Source of the DNA: Phyllobates terribilis
Lineage: Eukaryota
Direction of reading: 5' to 3'
Assembly: GCF_046119375.1 (NCBI RefSeq)
Contig: NW_027362771.1
Span: 590,364,001 to 590,428,000 of the forward strand
Length of the DNA stretch: 64,000 nt
Shown here piece by piece: positions 51,969 to 64,000 of the stretch. The notes under the pieces are model-generated. The model was not told where the DNA came from. It did no database searches and worked only from the letters and a program-made list of their open reading frames with translations. Each line of letters opens with the position of its first letter. Positions within the stretch are counted from its first letter, which is position 1. The position numbers were made by a program, and so were the translations under genes.

Positions 51969-53354
51969 CAGTGCCGGCAAAAAAAATCTTTACAAGTTCA
52001 ATGAAACCACAAAATCTTAATATTCAAGTGGATTCATGTGTTTTATTGTGGATATTTTATTACAATTAGTATTTTGTCATGTCACCCTTACATTTTATCA
52101 CCATCTGCAGTCGTTTTGGCATGGATTCATCAAGGCTGGCTAAGTATGTGGAGTCCATGTTTACCCACAGTGTCTTCAGCACCTCCTTTAGATTGTTGAT
52201 GATGCTGGGTCGTGTCTCTTGAACCTTGTTTTTCATTAAATTCCAGGCATTTTCTACGGGGTTAAGGTCAGGGGAATTACCTGGCCACTCTAAAATCTTA
52301 ATGTTATGGTCACTGAGAAACTTTCTCACGGCCTTGGCTTTGTGGACAGGGGCTCTATCATGCATAAAGTAATCACACTGATGTATGACCCAAAAAGTAA
52401 GCAGGTGTTCTTCCAAAACAGTAATATAATTGCTTGCTTTCATAGTTACAATCTTGGGAAGGAAGTACAAACCTGCCCTGCCCATGCTTCCACTGAATGC
52501 ACCCCACACCATCACACTGTCAGGGTGTTTAACAGTCTTAACTGTATATTTTGGGTCATAACGTGACACTGTACTCGGACGACGCACAACCTTTGAGCCT
52601 CCCCTGACCGGCCTGAAAGTGCTCTCATCACTAAACATCACTTTCTTCCACTCTTCAGATGTCCAATCTTGATATTTCTTACAAAAGGCAAGCCTTTTCT
52701 TCTTCATTGCTGCTGTGAGCAGGGGCTTCTTTGCGGCACGGCAACTTGGTAGACCCAGGTCCTTCTGCAGGCGGTGACGAATTGTCCTAGTTGCGATGTT
52801 CTGGAGGAGCATAGGGTACTTGTTTTTTATTTCAACGGCAGTTATAGAAGGATGTGACATCACATCACGCTCCAGAAGCTTATCAGTCCTTGGTGAAGTC
52901 TTCTTAGGTGCGCCAGAACCTGACTTCCTCTGCGGTACCATCCCAGGAGGCAATGATGCCGCCGACCGCTTCAGTTGATAAATTGCTTCTCTTGACACTC
53001 CCAGATCTCTAGCTACAGCAATCACCGAATCCCCCTTCTCGAGCAGAGTCAAGGCACGGGATTTCTCATCCATTTTAAGCTTCTTTCGACCCATTGTGGG
53101 AGATAATATAAAACTGAGGGAGATAATAAAAGACTGCCTAATAGCAAAACTGGCTGAGCTGCACATAACAACCAATCAGAGTGCAGCTTTCGCTTTACCA
53201 GAGAAGTGAAAACTGAGCGTTGATTGGTTGATATTTGCAACAAAGCCAGCTTTAATATTAGACAGTTTTTTATTATCTCCCCCATTGTGTACACTTTTAA
53301 AAAGTGAAATTATGATGTGGATTTTATATGTAAAGATTTTTTTTGCCGGCACTG
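51969..53354 (-). mobile_element. Tc1-family transposon with short (~26 bp) TIRs, 1386 bp
   Basis: TA TSDs; TIR CAGTGCCGGCAAAAAAAATCTTTACA at both ends. Confidence 0.95.
52066..53094 (-). CDS. Intact DD34E transposase, 342 aa
   Basis: MGRKKLK.., paired-like HTHs, GAPKKT, FSDEST, FMHDRAPVH-x-SPDLNPVE (34 residues from D to E); no stops. Confidence 0.93.
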   Translation of the reverse strand: MGRKKLKMDEKSRALTLLEKGDSVIAVARDLGVSREAIYQLKRSAASLPPGMVPQRKSGSGAPKKTSPRTDKLLERDVMSHPSITAVEIKNKYPMLLQNIATRTIRHRLQKDLGLPSCRAAKKPLLTAAMKKKRLAFCKKYQDWTSEEWKKVMFSDESTFRPVRGGSKVVRRPSTVSRYDPKYTVKTVKHPDSVMVWGAFSGSMGRAGLYFLPKIVTMKASNYITVLEEHLLTFWVIHQCDYFMHDRAPVHKAKAVRKFLSDHNIKILEWPGNSPDLNPVENAWNLMKNKVQETRPSIINNLKEVLKTLWVNMDSTYLASLDESMPKRLQMVIKCKGDMTKY

Positions 53355-53817: not shown

Positions 53818-54931
53818 TGTAACGTGGCGCAGGGCGGTAGTCATGGGCGAGGTACTGTTTTCTTACGCCCCGGCACATGACATGAAGGTGGGGGGTCCGA
53901 CTGGATGTGCGGGCTTGTGCAGTGAGGGAGCTATGCCTGTGCCGACCACATGTAACCGATGTTGCTGGTTGGCCAGGACCAGATGTTTGACAGTTCAATG
54001 AGGGAGACTGCCAGTTTAAAAAGAACTTTTTACTGAACATTACCTTGGGGAGGGTATTATACAGTAGATAGCGGGTACATACAGTTGAAACCAGAAGTTT
54101 ACATCCACTATATAAAAAGACACATCTGCATGTTTTCTCAATATCTGACATGAAATCAGAATAAACCTTTCCCGTTTTAGGTCAATTAGGATTACCATCA
54201 TTTTTAATATTTGCCAAATGCCAGAATAATGAGAGAGAGAGAATGTTTTAAGGCATTTTTATTACTTACTGCAAAGTCAAAAGTTTACATACATTTCATT
54301 ATTATTAGGTACCATTGCCCTTAAACTGAATGACTTGGGTCACACGTTTGGGATCTCCTTCCACAAGCTTCTCACAATAGTTGGTTGGAATTTGGGCCCA
54401 TTCCTCCTGACAGAACTGGTGTAACTGATCCAGATTTGTAGGTCGTCTTGCTCGCACCTGCATTTTCAGCTTCGCCCATAAATTTTCAATAGGATTGAGA
54501 TCAGGGCTTTGTTATGGCCACTCCAAAACATTGACTTTGTTATCCTTAAGCTACTTTGTTACCATTTTGGCAGTATGTTTCGGGTCATTGTCCATTTGGA
54601 AGACTTATTTCCACCCAAGCTTTAACTTCCTGGCTGATGTCTCGAGATGTTGCTTCAGTATTGCCACATAATCTTCTTTTCTCATGACGCCATCTATTTT
54701 GTGAAGTGCACCAGTCCCTCCTACAGCAAAACAACCTCACAACATGATGCTGCCACCCCCATGTTTCACAGCTGGGATGGTGTTCTTAGGCTTCCGAGCT
54801 TCTTCTTTTTTCCTCCAAACGTAACAATAGTCATTATGCCAAAAAAGTTCAATTTTAGTTTCATCAGACCACAGGACATGTCTCCAAAAATTAAGGTCTT
54901 TGTTCCTGTGTGCATTTGCAAACATTAATCT

Positions 54932-55451
54932 TGTCGGGGTAAAAGAGAATATATATTTTTGTAACTTTTATACTTTTGTAACTTTTATAAGTTTTTTTGC
55001 TAATGTACTAACCACCATTTTGTGTCTTATAACAATAAGCTTTCCTTGCTACGTATTACTCAAATCGAAATTTAAACTAAGACAGTTCCAGTGTTGCCAA
55101 GACTTATTTCAGAGAAACGAAACAAGATTATAAGCTGACGGCTGCAATATCTGCCCAGAGACTGAGATAAGGAGATGTGGACCAATCAGGAGTGGCCAGA
55201 CACTGGACTTTCATGGCTTACCCCGCCCCGGACAACCCCTTTCCCCTCCCCATTATGTAGTGTATTTAGGTTTGTGTATGTAGGAATAAACACAGAACAT
55301 TGCTGAGAACGTTGTCTGTAGTAGTCTTTTGAGCGTGCTCTGAGTTTGAACCAGCTTGTTGTCTGACTCATTCTTTGAATGGTTGACCCATGCTCATAGT
55401 TTGAATTTGGAGTGACTGGAGGACGAGTGGAATGTCATCACGACCCTCACA
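54932..55451 (+). repeat. ERV 5' LTR
   Basis: TGTCGG..CTCACA; CCAAT 55182-86, GC box 55221-29, AATAAA 55285-90. Confidence 0.96.
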
Positions 55452-55453
55452 AA

Positions 55454-55471
55454 TGGCGCCCAACGTGGGGC
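55454..55471 (+). promoter_or_regulatory. Primer binding site, tRNA-Lys1,2 (CUU)
   Basis: TGGCGCCCAACGTGGGGC, the canonical Lys1,2 PBS, 2 nt after the LTR. Confidence 0.95.
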
Positions 55472-55871
55472 GTGGCTAGCGGTACGCCGCTTTCCCGGAC
55501 CCATATCGCTGATTTCCCTGGTGGTGACCGCGGTGGCTGAATTTGAGGCCTGATCAACCTCCATCGAACACGGTAAGTTGAGATGTATTTTATATGTCTC
55601 ACTTGCCTGTGTGTGTCAGCCGCAGTGGTTCCTGTTGGGTTGTCAGGTTGGATCTGTGTGGGTGATCGGTCGAGTGGTGAGACCTCAGGCGTCCCGCACC
55701 ACGTCCTGAACCAGCAAGTGTTAAAACGAGTGACGTCGCATGCCTGCGCGTGCTCGTGTGAACACCATCTCCTCCTCCTCCGGTCACTGAACTCTCTTTA
55801 GATAGCTGCCTCCCGTAACTGATAGTCGAGGTTTCAAAGCATTCCTGAATTGTAGTGTAAGGGAGAAAGAA

Positions 55872-56197
55872 TCTGTGACGAATTGAGGTGTACTCTTCGT
55901 CTTATACAGAGAAACCTCATAAGGAGGTGTTGTGCTGTCAGAATCTGTGACGAATTGAGGAGTGCTCTTCGTCTAACACAGAGACTGCTGTAAAGTCAAG
56001 GTTAGGAAACAGTGTATTGAGGTGTCTCTACACTGTCGGGTGGTGCCGTGGTAGGAAAGGAGATAGATTGAGGTGTCTCTCTATCTCATCAGTGTATTGA
56101 GGTGTCTCTACACTGTCGGGTGGTGCCGTGGTAGGAAAGGAGATAGATTGAGGTGTCTCTCTATCTCATCAGTGTATTGAGGTGTGCTCTACACTGA
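55872..56197 (+). promoter_or_regulatory. Array of seven bulged RNA hairpins (stem-A-UU-GAG-loop-CUC-U-stem) in the ERV leader
   Basis: Each pairing checked by eye; three different lower stems keep pairing. Confidence 0.75.
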
Positions 56198-56514
56198 GGA
56201 GTGGCGACCTGTGGACTGCACCAGTGATCTGAGTCGCGACAGATCATTGCATTCTATAAGAAAATGTTGCGTATATTCAAATTTGAAAGATCTCGTAAGT
56301 TGCGGAATGCTGCTGTGGGAGTTAAGCCAATTAGTGGAGTTACGGGAAGGCAAGAAGGCAAGAAGAATGTTAGGAATTTGTATAACATGATAAGCTTATC
56401 CAGTACAGGCAGGCTTTAGTTTTCAGTGTAGAAAGAATGTGTTACACAGAAATTGGGAAAGCTGGGTGAGGACTTCTGCACCAGGCTCAAGCACATCTTA
56501 GAGTAGCGAGTGAT

Positions 56515-58244
56515 TTGAAGTCTGAAGGCTGGAAAGAAGTAGATGGTGTGGGGGGGACAGAGAATGCCGAGCCTTTGTTCGGATACATGAAAGCTGCAGA
56601 CTGTGATTTGTTATGTGCCCCCAAAATGGCCGTTGCACCTTTGATGCCTGTCACTACACCGAGCCCTCAGCCACCGCCCTATAATGGTACCAACAACAAA
56701 TCACCGGAGGGGTGGACGTGTCGGGTGTGTGGAGATCAAAACCCACCCTGGGCGGAGTTCTGCTGTGTCTGTGGGGCGGGCCGCCCATGGCACGATGCCC
56801 AGCCTGTCTCCAAGAACAATCCCACTTCCACTCCACCTCCTCCCTCCAACGGCCATCTTACTACACCTTTTCCTGCCTCCAAGAACAATCCCACTTCCAC
56901 TCTAACTCCTCCCTCCCATGGCCATCTTGCTACACCTCTTACTTGTTGTGAAAAGCCCCAATCCGGCCTATATCCACTACTAGATCCGTCCGGTGCATAT
57001 TACCAGCCACCAGCACAGGTGGAAAAGCCCGCAGTCCCAGAGCACCCATCTGAAACTAATGTGACAACGCTTCCCCTGTTTCCTATGGGAGTCACCCACA
57101 ACCCTGGGGATATCCTCCTCAACTCCCCAGAATTTCAGGCCAGACTGCTCTCCCACCGCCAACATACTGTTACTCAAGACGATACGGAGCCAGATGAGGG
57201 ATGGGCTCAAGATACTCCAGCCCCCCCCCCTCCTTTACCCCATACGTCTCCTATGGCATCCTTCACCCCACATCCATTACCCGTACTCCGGCCCTTGCTC
57301 CAAGCAACTGCTGAAAGAGCACCACCCCCCAGCCCCTCAGAAGTCTGGGATCCCTGCCGCTCCCGGAATCTAGTAGACCCATCAGGACGACCTGTCACTC
57401 TGTCAATAGGCTATGGTGACATCCTTACACATCTGGTGGGGGCCATAATCAACCCTGCAAACACCCGTATGAGCCATGCTGGAGGATTGGCTCGTAAAAT
57501 TGCCCTTGCTGCTGGTTCCACTCTGGCTGCAGAATGCCAGGCTCACTTAGCCGAAAACGGAGAGCTTTCAAAAGGCCATGGATTCCACAAAAGCAGGATC
57601 CCTTAGTACGTATGAATCCGGCCTAGAATACATGAAACAGTTAAAGGCCTGGGCTCGGGATCGCTTGTCAGATCAAGCTGGGTCTGTACAAGATGTTCAA
57701 CAAGACCCTGATGACTCTGTGGAAAGATATGCTGCAAGACTCAGCATGCATTTTGTTGGTTCAGGCCCTAGTAGATGGCCTACAAGACGCTCTCAGAGAT
57801 GAAGTCCTGAGAGTACGGCCCGAGATTCGTTCTTCTTCTTTCAACGACGCGGTGGACATCGTTCAAGCTTTCCAAAAATCAATGCTAAAAATGGAAAAGG
57901 ATACTAAGCCAAAGAAGAAAACCGCTCCTGCCATGGTATATCAAGCTCATGAAAGCTACCCACCCCCTGGCAACCAACATGGAATCAAGTGGGTAATGGT
58001 TAAAGGCACAGGTGATGATACTCCTCCCACATATAGAAAACAAGACAGAAGAGATGACAAGGGACCATCTAGAAACAGAAGACAATCTCGTGATTCTGAA
58101 GGACGAATGTTGTGTTGGGAGTGTGGTAGCCTTGACCACATCCTCAGAGACTGTCCAACCCGCAGACAGTACCATGACCGGTCGTTCCGTGACGGTCCAC
58201 ACAACCATGGACCTTCCCGTGAACCATCTCATCCACGCCAATGA
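56515..58244 (+). pseudogene. gag: ERV gag: PPPY (56671-82), RanBP2-type zinc finger (56710-87), YPLL, macro-domain half (57394-57604), CA C-terminal part, CCHC knuckle; two frameshifts and an internal deletion
   Basis: WTCRVCGDQNPPWAEFCCVC; GDILTHLVGAIINPANTRMSHAGGLARKI; VQQDPDDSVERYAARL; CWECGSLDHILRDC. Confidence 0.88.
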
Positions 58245-61200
58245 CGGCTCGGTCAACCAGTGTCCACTTTCCCGGCTACGCATCTCACGGCCGCCTGTGG
58301 GACTGTCACTTTACAGGTGGACCATCAACCACTGGAGTTCCTGGTGGACACTGGGGCGGCCACATCTGTCATTTCCTCTGCACAGCTCCCTCCTTCTGTA
58401 TCCCTATCACCGGATACCCTCACCTGTGTTGGGGTGGAAGGCCAACATATTTCCTCTCCACTCACAGTCCCTGTGTCTGCAGGACCGTTCACCGGAGTAC
58501 TCACAAGATTCTTGGTCTGTGAAACTTGCCCTGTCAATCTGTTGGGAGCCGATCTCTTAGAGCGGATGAAGGCAACAATTAGCTTCGGAAACCATGGTAT
58601 GGAGCTTCTTTTGCGGGACCCTCATTCCGAACAAGGGACTGAAGACCGCTGTTTTCTTAAAGCCTTCCCTCTCATGATGATGACCATACAACCTCACACT
58701 CTTCTTGATATCTCACAGTTCCCTCACTCTCTGTGGTCCAGTGGGCCAGAGGACGTCGGCCTCCTGCAGGTTCCCCCGGTCCGAGTACACCTCAAGCCTG
58801 GACACAGGTACCCACGGTTGCCACAATACCCCCTCAAGGCTGCACAAGAACAAAGCTTGGGTACCCAAATCGCTTCCCTCCTGGAATCAGGAGTCCTTGT
58901 CAGATGTGTATCCCCATGCAATACACCCCTCTTTCCTGTAAAAAAAGAAAACCGTTCCGGGAGAGTCTCCAAGATACCAGTTGATTCAGGATCTCAGAGC
59001 CGTCAATGCAGCTACCATTTTAGAAACTCCAGTGGTACCTAACCCAAACACCCTCTTGTCTCAGCTGCCTCCAACGGCCACCTTGTTTACGGTGTTAGAT
59101 CTGGCCAACGCCTTCTTCAGTATACCCTTACATGAAGATTCGTGGTTTCTTTCTGCCTTCACCTTCCAAGGAGCACAGCTTACATGGACCAGGACTCCGC
59201 AAAGAGCCCAGAACTCTCCTAACCAATTCACTCATTCTATGAAGTCTATTCTGGAGCCATGGGTTCAAGAGAACCCTCAGGTCACCCTTCTACAGTATGT
59301 GGATGATCTTTTACTCTGTGACACTGAAGAAAATTTGCCAGAGATGTCAGTATCCCTTCTCTGGTTTCTTCACTCGGCTAACTGTAAAGTCTCGAAAGGC
59401 GAAGTCCAATGGTGTCTGCCCAAGGTCATTTTCCTCGAACATTGTATATCACAAGGTGCTAGACATCTGACTGAAGAAAGAAAACAAGCCATCATGGATA
59501 TCACCTTCCCAACCACCTACTCCGCTATGCAGACTTTCCTTGGCCTCATCATTTACTGCAGGCAATGGATCCCTGATGCCTCAAAGCTCATGCAACCTCT
59601 GTACGACTATCTCAAGGATGAAGGCTCAGTTTGGCTTCATACTGAAGATCCACGTGTTTCTCATCAACACAGACTATGTTTTGACCGCCTTAAACAGGCT
59701 GTTGTCTCTGCCCCGGCCTTGGGCTTACCAGACTATACTCAGCCATTTCACCTCTTTGTCTCGGAATCGGAAGGTCATGCCTCTGGAGTTCTAGCACAAC
59801 GCTATGATCATAAGTATCGGCCTTTGGGCTACTACTCAGCCCGCCTGGACCCTGTCGCCCGAACTGCCCCTACGTGCCTTAAGGCGGTCCACGCTGCTCA
59901 CATCCTCCTTGACAAGTCAGCTGATATCGTCCTTGGACATGATCTAGTTATACAGGCTGGCCATGATCTCTCGGCTGTTCTGCAACAAACATCTCCGAAA
60001 CATCTAACCAACCAAAGACACCTGCGGCTGCAGTGTTCCCTATTGTTGCCCTCCAATATAACATTTACCAGATGTCTGACTATCAATCCTGCCACTTTGC
60101 TTCCACCTTCTAGGGGGGAAGGTGAAGAGGGTGAAGGTCCATTGGTGGAACCTCATGATTGTATAAAAATTTTACAGGAAGAGACTTCTGCTCCAGAGAA
60201 TATGGTGGCACATCCGCTCGCAGACCCTGCCTTGCACCTATGGACTGATGGATCCCGGCTCGCAGACCCTCAAGGGAAGTTCCACACGGGATATGCTGTC
60301 ACAACGGACCTAACAGTCCTCAAGGCTGAAGCTCTACCACCATACATGTCTGCACAAGAAGCTGAACTTGTGGCTCTCACAGAGGCCTGCCACCTGGCAG
60401 CAGGAACAAAGGCGAATATATATATACCGATTCCAGGTATGGACATGGAATTTGCAATGATTCTGGACTCTTGTGGAAGTCTAGAGGATTCATCACAGCT
60501 GCAGGTACACCAGTGAAACATGTCTCATGGATTAAGGCCCTAATGAAGGCCCTGGAACTACCCATTCAGGTTGCTGTTATCAAGGTCAAGGCTCATGGAA
60601 GACTAGAATCCAGAGAAGCCAGGGGCAACCACCTAGCTGACCAAGCAGCCAAGACTGCAGCAGTGGAGAATGTGTCATCAAAGTGGCAGGAAAAGGAAGA
60701 AGAGATGGGGGAAACCCTGCAAACCGTAGCTGTGGCGCTCACTAGAGCAAGAGCCAAAGAACAGCCGGCGGAAGACCATACAAGTCCAGCGGAGACACGA
60801 GTGGAATCCAGGGGGGTCAGGATGCCTGAAGAAAAATTGTGTGAGGAACAAAGGAAGACCCCCCCACTGAAGAAGTCAAGCAATGGAAAGCGGCAGGAGC
60901 TGTGCTGGCAGGTCGCAAAGATTCAAAGGTCAACTCGACTCTTTACCAAGTGGATGGGAAGCCTTGCTTGCCTAGACGCATATACTCAGCTGTGGCAGCA
61001 TGGGCTCACGGGCCTACACACAGAGGAAAGAATCAAGCCTTGGCATGTATCAAGAAACTGTATTTTGCACCCGGAATCTCTTCCACTGTGACTGCATACT
61101 CAAAATCCTGCTCTGTCTGCGCTACCTGCAACCCAACGTGTACGGCACGGGTCCCTCTCCAACACCTGGCTAAACCAGACTACCCTTGGCAGAGAATACA

Positions 61201-61969
61201 AGTCGACCATATCCAAATGCCTAAAGCAGGAAAATAGGAGTACGTTTTGGTAGCCGTGGATATGTTCTCAGCCTGGCCCGAGGCCTACCCGGTTGTCAAC
61301 ATGACTGCTAAAGTCACAGCCAAGAAACTGATCACCGAAATTGCCTACAGATTTGGAGTTCCCCAAGTCATAGAATCGGATCAAGGACCAGCTTTCACAG
61401 CAAATATCTACGAAGAACTCTGGAACATGTTGGGAACAGATTTGGGCCTCCACACTCCATACCATTCTGCCAGTTCAGGCAAAGTGGAGAGAATGAATTC
61501 CACACTCAAGACCCAGCTCTTGAAAATGACCTAAGATCATCCCCTCCCCTGGCCCGACCTACTCCCCATAGTATTGTATCATATCAGACACACTCCTCAG
61601 GCCAAATATGGGCTGACTCCCTATAAAATTTTGTTTGGGACCCCACCCAAGATAGGAGAGATTAGGCCCCAAGAGTTGTCTGAAACACATGATAGAGTGG
61701 TAAAATTTGTGATTGCTTTGTCTAGAGAATTGACTAACACCCGCTCTCCAGTATCTGCTTCTCTCCCAGAATCTACAGGTGATGCAGTACATGATTTCAT
61801 CCCAGGCGATCTAGTGTATGTGAAGAAGTTTGTCCGGAAAGACTGCCTCCAGCCGCGGTTCGAGGGACCGTACACTGTGCTTCTCACCACCCCGACGGCC
61901 CTGAAGCTTGAGGGCAAGAGCACCTGGATTCACGCCTCCCACTGCAAGAGAGACAGAACGAGTCTATAA
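58245..61969 (+). pseudogene. pol: ERV pro-pol (PR, RT, RNaseH, IN) with three frameshifts and two in-frame stops (61235-37, 61532-34)
   Basis: LVDTGA; LPQYPL; QYVDDLL; WTDGS..SAQEAEL; HGPTH..CSVC; QVDH, SDQG, GKVERMN; [13 protein letters not shown]. Confidence 0.93.
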
Positions 61970-61972
61970 AAG

Positions 61973-62250
61973 ATGACTACCTTCTTCTATATCCTTTCCA
62001 TATGCTTACTGTCTGTCCCAGGGTGGACAGCTACCACACAGGGGTAGATATCTCCTTCTTTTCAGGTTGGTTGGGAGGGCTCAAGGGATTCCTCCAACAA
62101 GTTTGTCTAGTAATGGGAGGTCTATTAGTATTGGGCCTGGTGGTCCTGTGCTGCATAGTCCCCTTATACAGGAAAGCTATAACCAATGCTGTCCCAACCT
62201 CCGGGACCTTTCTGAATCAAGAGAAGATATGGAGAAATACACTCCTTTGA
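61973..62250 (+). pseudogene. env: env remnant: signal peptide joined out of frame to membrane anchor and tail
   Basis: MTTFFYILSICLLSVPGWTA..*; then GWLGGLKGFLQQVCLVMGGLLVLGLVVLCCIVPLYRK in another frame. Confidence 0.75.
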
Positions 62251-62468
62251 ACAAGCCTGACCAGCCCCCCCATGACAAAGTTCAATTGAGAGATTTAGTT
62301 TAGGGACAGTTGGGAGAACTCCATGTGTCACCCAGGATAGGGCTCGATTGTCTGGGGGCGTCCCATAAGGGGGCAGCTTCTAAGATGATTGGGTGAAGAA
62401 ATCCACCTCCCCTCTCCCCACACATGGACAGTCTCAAAGGCCCCGAAGAAAGGGAAAGCTTAGTGTTT

Positions 62469-62477
62469 AGGGGGGAA
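62469..62477 (+). promoter_or_regulatory. Polypurine tract
   Basis: AGGGGGGAA directly before the 3' LTR. Confidence 0.85.
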
Positions 62478-62997
62478 TGTCGGGGTAAAAGAGAATATAT
62501 ATTTTTGTAACTTTTATACTTTTGTAACTTTTATACGTTTTTTTGCTAATGTACTAACCACCATTTTGTGTCTTATAACAATAAGCTTTCCTTGCTACGT
62601 ATTACTCAAATCGAAATTTAAACTAAGACAGTTCCAGTGTTGCCAAGACTTATTTCAGAGAAACGAAACAAGATTATAAGCTGACGGCTGCAATATCTGC
62701 CCAGAGACTGAGATAAGGAGATGTGGACCAATCAGGAGTGGCCAGACACTGGACTTTCATGGCTTACCCCGCCCTGGACAACCCCTTTCCCCTCCCCATT
62801 ATGTAGTGTATTTAGGTTTGTGTATGTAGGAATAAACACAGAACATTGCTGAGAACGTTGTCTGTAGTAGTCTTTTGAGCGTGCTCTGAGTTTGAACCAG
62901 CTTGTTGTCTGACTCATTCTTTGAATGGTTGACCCATGCTCATAGTTTGAATTTGGAGTGACTGGAGGACGAGTGGAATGTCATCACGACCCTCACA
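62478..62997 (+). repeat. ERV 3' LTR
   Basis: 520 bp; only two differences from the 5' LTR found by eye. Confidence 0.96.
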
Positions 62998-64000
62998 ATC
63001 TGGCTTTTTTATGTTTCTTTTGGAGTAATGGCTTCTTACTGGCAGAGTGGCCTTTCAGCCCATGTTGATACAGTACTCGCTTCACTGTGGTTATTGACAT
63101 AAACTTACCAGCTTCCGCCATCATCTTCACAAGGTCTTTTGCTTTTGTCCTTGGTTGATATGCACATGTCGGACCAAAGCACGTTCATTTCTGGGACACA
63201 GACCCGTCTCTTTCCTGAGTGGTATGATGGCTGGACATTTCCATCTTGTTTGTACTTGCGTATAATTGTTTGTACAGATGAACGAGGCACCTTCAGGTAT
63301 CTTGAAATTGTACCCAAGAATGAGCCAGACATAAGAAAGTCCACAATTCTCTTGCTGATATCTTGGTTGATTTCTTTAGACTTTCCCATGATGCTACACA
63401 AAGAAGCAGTGTGTTTCAGGTGTGCATTAAAATACATCCACAGGTGTGTCTCTAATTAACTCAGATGTTGCCAAAAACCAGAAGCTTCCAAACACATGAC
63501 ATCATCATATGGGCAGTCCAGAATTATTTAAAGGCATAGTAATCTTAATGTATATAAACGTTTGACTTTGCTGTAAGTAATAAAAATGCCTTAAAACATT
63601 CTCTCTCTCTCATTATTCTGGCATTTGGCAAATATTAAAATTGATGGTAATCCTAATTGACCTAAAACGGGAAAGGTTTATTCTGATTTCATGTCAGATA
63701 TTGAGAAAAACATGCAGATGTGTCTTTTTATATAGTGTATGTAAACTTCTGGTTTCAACTGTATCTTCTCAAATGTTTCCTTGCCGATGCGTAACATTTT
63801 CTTTACACAAATTCAATCCCTTTCTTTTCTCTCTCTTTACTTGTCCTCTGTCTTCACTAGTCCTCACTACTCTACCACAACCCAGCTCAACACTACAGTT
63901 GAGCTAGCAAGAGTCCTTTACTCAACTCCCGCCTGGGCACTTTCTTTGTCTCACATACTACGTCCTGTCTAGGCCCGTTACCTTCCAGGCATCCTCTCCC

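Follow-up and report, generated by a model that had tools for sequence, protein, structure and literature searches.

A tandem array of TAR-type bulged hairpins in the leader of a frog endogenous retrovirus and its possible role in the recognition of genomic RNA

The leader of a frog endogenous retrovirus (ERV) contains a row of short bulged hairpins whose core resembles the arginine-binding pocket of HIV TAR, which raises the question of whether this array is a functional RNA element and which protein might read it. The provirus, a young epsilon-like frog ERV, occupies 54932-62997 on the + strand of the window, the 64-kb stretch of DNA analysed here, and its nearest named Pol relatives are frog sequences with 51-94% identity. 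A 4-bp target duplication (ATCT) surrounds the provirus, and the host site is the interior of a Tc1-like transposon. The interrupted element covers 54079-54931 and 62998-63764, with inverted ends at 54079-54295 and 63547-63764, and the minus strand nearby (52066-53175) carries a further Tc1-like transposase frame, 369 codons long. The landmarks of the provirus are listed below.

54932..55451, + strand: 5' LTR, 520 bp, 2 mismatches to the 3' LTR; CCAAT at 55182, AATAAA at 55285
55454..55471, + strand: primer-binding site (PBS), from the sequence
55570..55579, + strand: predicted major splice donor ACG/GTAAG, GT at 55573
56264..58244, + strand: gag, broken here (several frames, shortened), with a RanBP2-type finger, a truncated macro domain, one CCHC knuckle and arginine-rich flanks
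58245..61969, + strand: pro-pol, broken, several frames, with PR, RT, RNase H and IN with an MLV-type C-terminus
61976..62303, + strand: env remnant, approximately 1.5 kb missing relative to env-bearing copies, with the last part of a second, stop-free frame over TM
62478..62997, + strand: 3' LTR, 520 bp

The PBS is presumably of the tRNA-Lys type, and the transcription start was placed from the CCAAT and AATAAA in the LTR. Three upstream AUGs (55583, 55594 and 55740) lie between the donor and gag. Matches to the donor motif in the genome carried GT 822 times and another base at +2 only twice, and the 822 GT-bearing matches also set a lower bound on the copy number of the family. No splice joint from the 55573 donor was present among the joints listed in contigs of four runs presumed to be RNA, and spliced retrocopies sought in the genome by sequence pattern were not found. 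The leader occurs as contigs in runs presumed to be RNA, which shows presence only, as do the pieces of the array in contigs under a second organism label. The families with a macro domain in Gag (56470-57606 in the window), namely A, to which this provirus belongs, B, C and D, form a supported clade (99/98) whose inner order is not resolved; a similar donor is found at the same place in the leaders of B, C and D, and RanBP2-type fingers occur in several families.

The array comprises seven hairpins at 55877-56197, each with a stem ending in A, a UU bulge, GAG, a loop of 4-5 nt, CUC, and a U leading into the returning stem. The lower stems are of 6-8 bp, Watson-Crick throughout, and end in A-U.

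55877..55901, + strand: hairpin 1, stem type I (GACGAA/UUCGUC), loop GUGUA
55949..55973, + strand: hairpin 2, stem type I, loop GAGUG
56009..56036, + strand: hairpin 3, stem type II (CAGUGUA/UACACUG), loop GUGU
56060..56087, + strand: hairpin 4, stem type III (GAGAUAGA/UCUAUCUC), loop GUGU
56090..56115, + strand: hairpin 5, stem type II, from an 80-bp duplication
56140..56167, + strand: hairpin 6, stem type III, from an 80-bp duplication
56169..56197, + strand: hairpin 7, stem type II, loop GUGUG

All seven TAR-like hairpins reported by the initial annotation are present, and each of them folds into the described bulged form when isolated (7/7; z -2.4 to -3.1 for the five non-duplicates). They are the sole matches to the core on both strands of the whole 64 kb, and the core with a 6-bp stem was met in none of 300 simulated 8-kb sequences (Markov control), compared with seven times in the real provirus. 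The 351-nt region overall is no more stable than its shuffles (z -1.19), and ensembles computed for the full leader show partial pairing between the duplicated hairpins, the mean lower-stem probability being 0.02-0.98 depending on the model. The suggested origin of some copies from an 80-bp duplication was borne out by an exact duplication of that length, accompanied by a 72-bp one; the seven hairpins thus represent three stem types rather than seven independent cases. The first hairpin begins approximately 300 nt 3' of the donor, 420 nt after the PBS and approximately 580 nt downstream of the inferred cap; 66 nt separate the last one from the gag AUG (56264), and the LTRs lack the array, in line with the earlier placement 3' of the PBS and outside R. 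Between the type I hairpins, the spacer at 55902-55941 holds another predicted hairpin with CCUC AUAAG GAGG at its top, which is repeated along with the type I hairpins in some subfamilies.

To follow the array beyond one copy, 130 family A loci were sampled, 30 via leader similarity and 100 via Pol or protease matches. The array was delimited in 121 of them, the nine that could not be delimited being left out, and these correspond to 116 independent insertions with 904 hairpins. Each locus carries 3-21 hairpins, and none of the 121 delimited copies has fewer than three. Across nine core positions in three stem types, 0 of 27 positions vary in at least three insertions; by the same threshold, 13 of the 98 positions in the spacers and 79 of the 417 in the upstream leader do. 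Rare core changes amount to three seen in two insertions each and 15 seen once, with U23 and A27 (TAR numbering) constant across the 904 hairpins. The second bulge base varies freely (the three stem types have C there in 10, 5 and 5 insertions, and it is absent in 16), and so do the loops, which take 26 forms, mostly of 4-7 nt, with GU in 901 of 904.

In the lower stems, recurrent changes preserve pairing in seven of nine cases (five G.U, two double), compared with three of 18 one-off changes (Fisher p 0.004, counting events and without phylogenetic correction), and recurrent wobbles comprise five G.U and one A.C. The initial annotation had read its three "unrelated" stems as covariation-like. 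All three do pair, but types III and I are joined by natural intermediates (GAUAGA/UCUAUC, GAUAGA/UCUGUC, GACAGA/UCUGUC, GACGGA/UCUGUC, GACGGA/UUCGUC and GACGAA/UUCGUC), indicating true covariation for that pair and not a separate origin. Other changes break the units: a U.U mismatch at type III pair 5 has spread to 42 insertions, a C.A mismatch at a CpG is found in five, and five hairpins in four insertions (L024, L028, L083 and L084) carry the bulge and loop inverted within a perfect type III stem. Since the inverted hairpins have two different loops, at least two events took place and template switching at hairpins occurs. Taken together, the U.U spread, the C.A mismatch and the inverted units indicate that single hairpins are dispensable.

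A row of repeats with unstable copy number (3-21), in which five inverted hairpins record template switching, might be a neutral palindromic VNTR whose pairing is kept by template-switch correction without any function, the more so as the family is young and shared ancestry explains much of the identity. Correction of that kind would remove the bulge, but U23 shows no change across 904 hairpins; the core is fixed where the spacer and upstream leader vary; the preference for G.U over A.C is specific to the sense strand; and the core survives in family B, all of which makes a neutral origin highly improbable. Some retrotransposon leaders carry arrays of transcription-factor or insulator sites, and tandem repeats downstream of a promoter, with AGGTGT, which we take to resemble a T-box half site, in many units, would suit such a DNA-level role. 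However, the loop bases that form AGGTGT are those that vary most, and compensatory and G.U changes are meaningless for duplex DNA, so that this is the least probable of the explanations considered. Both readings are disfavoured by a bulge that is fixed and asymmetric and by a G.U bias specific to the sense strand. Judged by its pattern of variation, the array is a real, selected RNA element, and its predicted bulged fold is under selection as an RNA structure.

The motif is kept across family A and also in sister family B, the RT of which is 53-58% identical to that of A and the leader of which cannot be aligned with it by blastn. Absence of the motif from related proviruses, which the initial annotation had named as refuting its reading, was therefore not borne out. 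The family B array lies at the same place and typically has four hairpins (2-5 by strict count, 30 loci); 136 hairpin matches were counted, of which approximately 17 with a GGAAG loop were false matches at another site and were left out. Its unit reads CC, a UA or UG bulge, GAGU, a variable loop that is often GAGUG, ACUC and GG. The bulge U and GAG/CUC are common to both families, and the pair beneath is A-U in A and C-G in B. The lower stems of B are shorter and interrupted, one of its four units folds differently, its copies show more CpG decay, and one copy has a simple repeat where the array would be. A 13-residue tandem repeat is found in the Gag of many family B copies. In families C, D, E and F, no core cluster was found in the 20 + 20 loci scanned; the leaders inspected by eye were three of C, two of D, one of E and one of F. 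The few C and D leaders read contain repeats of another kind in the interval from donor to gag, with no likeness to the TAR-type core (L207, L209 and L219, approximately 400-700 nt after the PBS; L221 and L223), which might be family-specific recognition codes.

The arginine sandwich was described as a bulge pyrimidine in a stem triple over any Watson-Crick pair before the bulge (Pham et al., PMC6189040). In TAR, U23 joins A27-U38 over A22 and the arginines lie on G26 and G28, and in 7SK the base below the pocket is G, C or A (PMC6189040). The invariant positions of the array correspond in sequence to A22, U23, G26, A27-U38 and G28, which supports the earlier identification of the core with the bases of the TAR arginine pocket (PMC6189040). 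The sandwich pattern, comprising the bulge pyrimidine, the paired base before it and a purine pair able to form the triple, is fixed in A and B, and as far as the aligned units indicate, the fixed and free positions of both families match the published TAR/7SK rule. The U.A-U triple could probably form in each hairpin, and the likeness to TAR presumably arose by convergence.

Whether the array acts as TAR does is another matter. A true analogue would recruit P-TEFb or compete with 7SK for HEXIM and thereby raise elongation, and it is a point in its favour that the core equals the TAR pocket, with the A22-U40/U23/G26/A27-U38 arrangement common to 7SK ASM3 (PMC6189040). Moreover, the tandem hairpins of HIV-2 TAR have bulges of UU and UA, like those of families A and B, and context can alter its fold and argininamide binding (PMC1474061). 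TAR, however, spans +1 to +59 (PMC10970485), and the array lies approximately 580 nt past the inferred start, beyond the PBS and donor and absent from R. A CUGGGA/G hexaloop for cyclin T1 was sought in the array and was not found among its 26 loop variants, and no Tat-like gene was identified, nor was a separate ORF seen between IN, env and LTR in the 12 copies read. Identity with lentiviral TAR was rejected: the core agrees, but the position outside R, the distance from the inferred cap and the missing TAR loop do not. The transactivation in the TAR sense put forward by the initial annotation is accordingly very improbable.

The reading we prefer, with a probability of approximately 0.5, is that the array may be a multivalent packaging signal that engages several Gag molecules simultaneously. 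Being spliced out of env mRNA, the array would mark full-length RNA. Each unit would form a U.A-U triple over a G-C pair and thus a TAR/7SK-type arginine pocket, in which an arginine beside the single CCHC knuckle would dock while the knuckle would take a loop G; many weak sites would sum to selective capture, and template switching between repeats would alter the number of hairpins. Gag-binding sites placed where splicing removes them, with multiple sites acting additively, have been described (PMC13736810), as have several exposed sites for the single-knuckle NC of MLV (PMC7599994). The packaging reading is favoured by the position of the array between donor and gag AUG, a region from which splicing would remove Gag-binding sites, and by the fact that shortened-gag copies keep it, its loops expose G and the knuckle flanks are arginine-rich. 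Copies lacking parts of gag or env retain the array in cis (median 6 hairpins in the 49 long-gag and likewise in the 39 shortened-gag insertions), at least three hairpins being found in 121 of 121 delimited copies, defective ones included. At 13 positions around the knuckle, arginine is more frequent than any other residue (97 copies). A gain of hairpins in shortened-gag copies was not significant (p = 0.09). The different repeats at the same place in C and D are what family-specific recognition by Gag would lead one to expect.

Several observations weaken this reading. In the relevant passages of two reviews, the sites recognised by NC are UCUG or purines left unpaired, and an arginine pocket at a pyrimidine bulge is not among them (PMC13736810, PMC7599994). 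Families C and D, without the core, likewise have NC flanks rich in arginine, and the flanks of A and B are unlike each other. The spread of the U.U mismatch and a second TM frame restricted to the array-bearing families A and B count against packaging as well. The RanBP2 finger, proposed earlier as a reader, was not found in six family B loci, yet three families that lack the array have it; as it does not track the array across families, it is an unlikely partner.

The interval that holds the array also accommodates a regulator of splicing or translation, in which the hairpins would bind host proteins and restrain the donor or aid ribosomes past the three upstream AUGs. The AUGs themselves, the end of the array 66 nt before that of gag, and GGU-containing loops resembling the targets of splicing-related fingers (PMC6384913) are consistent with it. 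Broken-gag copies nevertheless retain the array equally well, spacing and number vary sevenfold, and what is conserved is the bulge and stem and not the loop sequence, so that regulation of this kind is improbable.

A stronger rival to packaging, though still unlikely, is an export element of the RRE/RxRE or CTE kind. The array, lying in an intron, would then be bound by a host factor, or by a viral accessory protein rich in arginine, that exports unspliced RNA. A place within an intron and multiple sites suit export as well as packaging, and the second frame over env TM could encode such a protein. This frame is stop-free for 111 codons in six of six env-bearing family A copies and open for 90-117 codons in three family B copies, a fourth having an internal stop. 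The synonymous sites that would make stops in it are used 0 of 12-13 times in A, in a window picked after the frame had been seen, and 0 of 7 times in B, which alone is borderline (p approximately 0.05) and becomes 1 of 11 in a wider window, compared with approximately 35% elsewhere in env; families C and D, without the core, use such sites 6 of 15 and 5 of 10-11 times, respectively, which gives an appearance of stop avoidance in A and B. Against this, the frames of A and B are unmatched to each other by tblastn, the frame has neither a Pfam match nor a conserved arginine-rich motif, and no joint into it was present among the joints listed in contigs of four runs. The second frame may be a hidden accessory exon, and its stop-free state in exactly the two array-bearing families makes a Rev-like reader conceivable. 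In the window, its tail lies at 61977-62303, with a strong acceptor-like sequence (pyrimidines, then CAG/G) at approximately 62050-62066.

Rfam covariance models gave two weak matches (E 4.4 and 8.1), neither within the array, and a search of IMG/VR by RT found no relative. A double-core pattern had 13 matches in IMG/VR, mostly without lower stems, which were taken as chance. Contigs L166 and L168 (each at 601-650) show a tandem core pair with 5-bp lower stems, either by chance or as an unrelated viral repeat. In the mainly open-access literature covered, no account of the array was found, nor any packaging or export element described for amphibian epsilon-like retroviruses. The passages available of two amphibian ERV surveys (PMC12690878; bioRxiv 2024.07.05.601823) do not treat leader structure, and their supplements may hold related sequences.

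A broader proposal, offered tentatively and at somewhat less than even odds, is that the members of this frog retrovirus clade may identify their genomic RNA by means of TAR-type arginine sandwiches in an array that can expand, with either Gag or a hidden Rev/Tat-like protein of the second frame as the reader. If so, the TAR fold would be a working viral RNA-protein code far outside the lentiviruses, with valency as an evolvable dial. The natural covariation and the series of 3-21 copies bear directly on the number of weak sites that Gag needs in order to be selective, and if arginine binding were shown, the TAR/7SK pocket would be a solution reused far from HIV for another job.

Among known systems, two frog class I ERVs, ERV-Epsilon-Dti and AnERV9, the latter with RanBP2-type fingers in Gag, are of like build (PMC12690878; bioRxiv 2024.07.05.601823). 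The gammaretroviral Psi, with SL-B, SL-C and SL-D in MLV, likewise combines 5'-leader hairpins, a single-knuckle NC and several sites (PMC7599994). Unlike Psi, the array is a modular VNTR with a conserved pyrimidine-bulge core, and neither GACG tetraloops (a GACG hairpin pair in MLV) nor UCUG linkers form its repeated unit. With HIV-1 TAR and HIV-2 hairpins I and II it has in common the order A-U, bulge U, G-C, A-U, G-C (PMC6189040, PMC7864049, PMC1474061); the second bulge base is free in both, and the tandem UU/UA bulges of HIV-2 resemble families A and B. The array differs from HIV TAR in starting neither at +1 nor in R, in its 3-21 copies, in a 3-bp upper stem with variable loops of 4-7 nt, and in lacking a cyclin T1 loop and an identified Tat-like gene. 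Finally, 7SK SL1 resembles the array in offering several pockets in one RNA, with an interchangeable pair under the bulge in both, whereas the 7SK pockets lie within one helix of a host snRNA and those of the array would stand one per hairpin in a viral leader.
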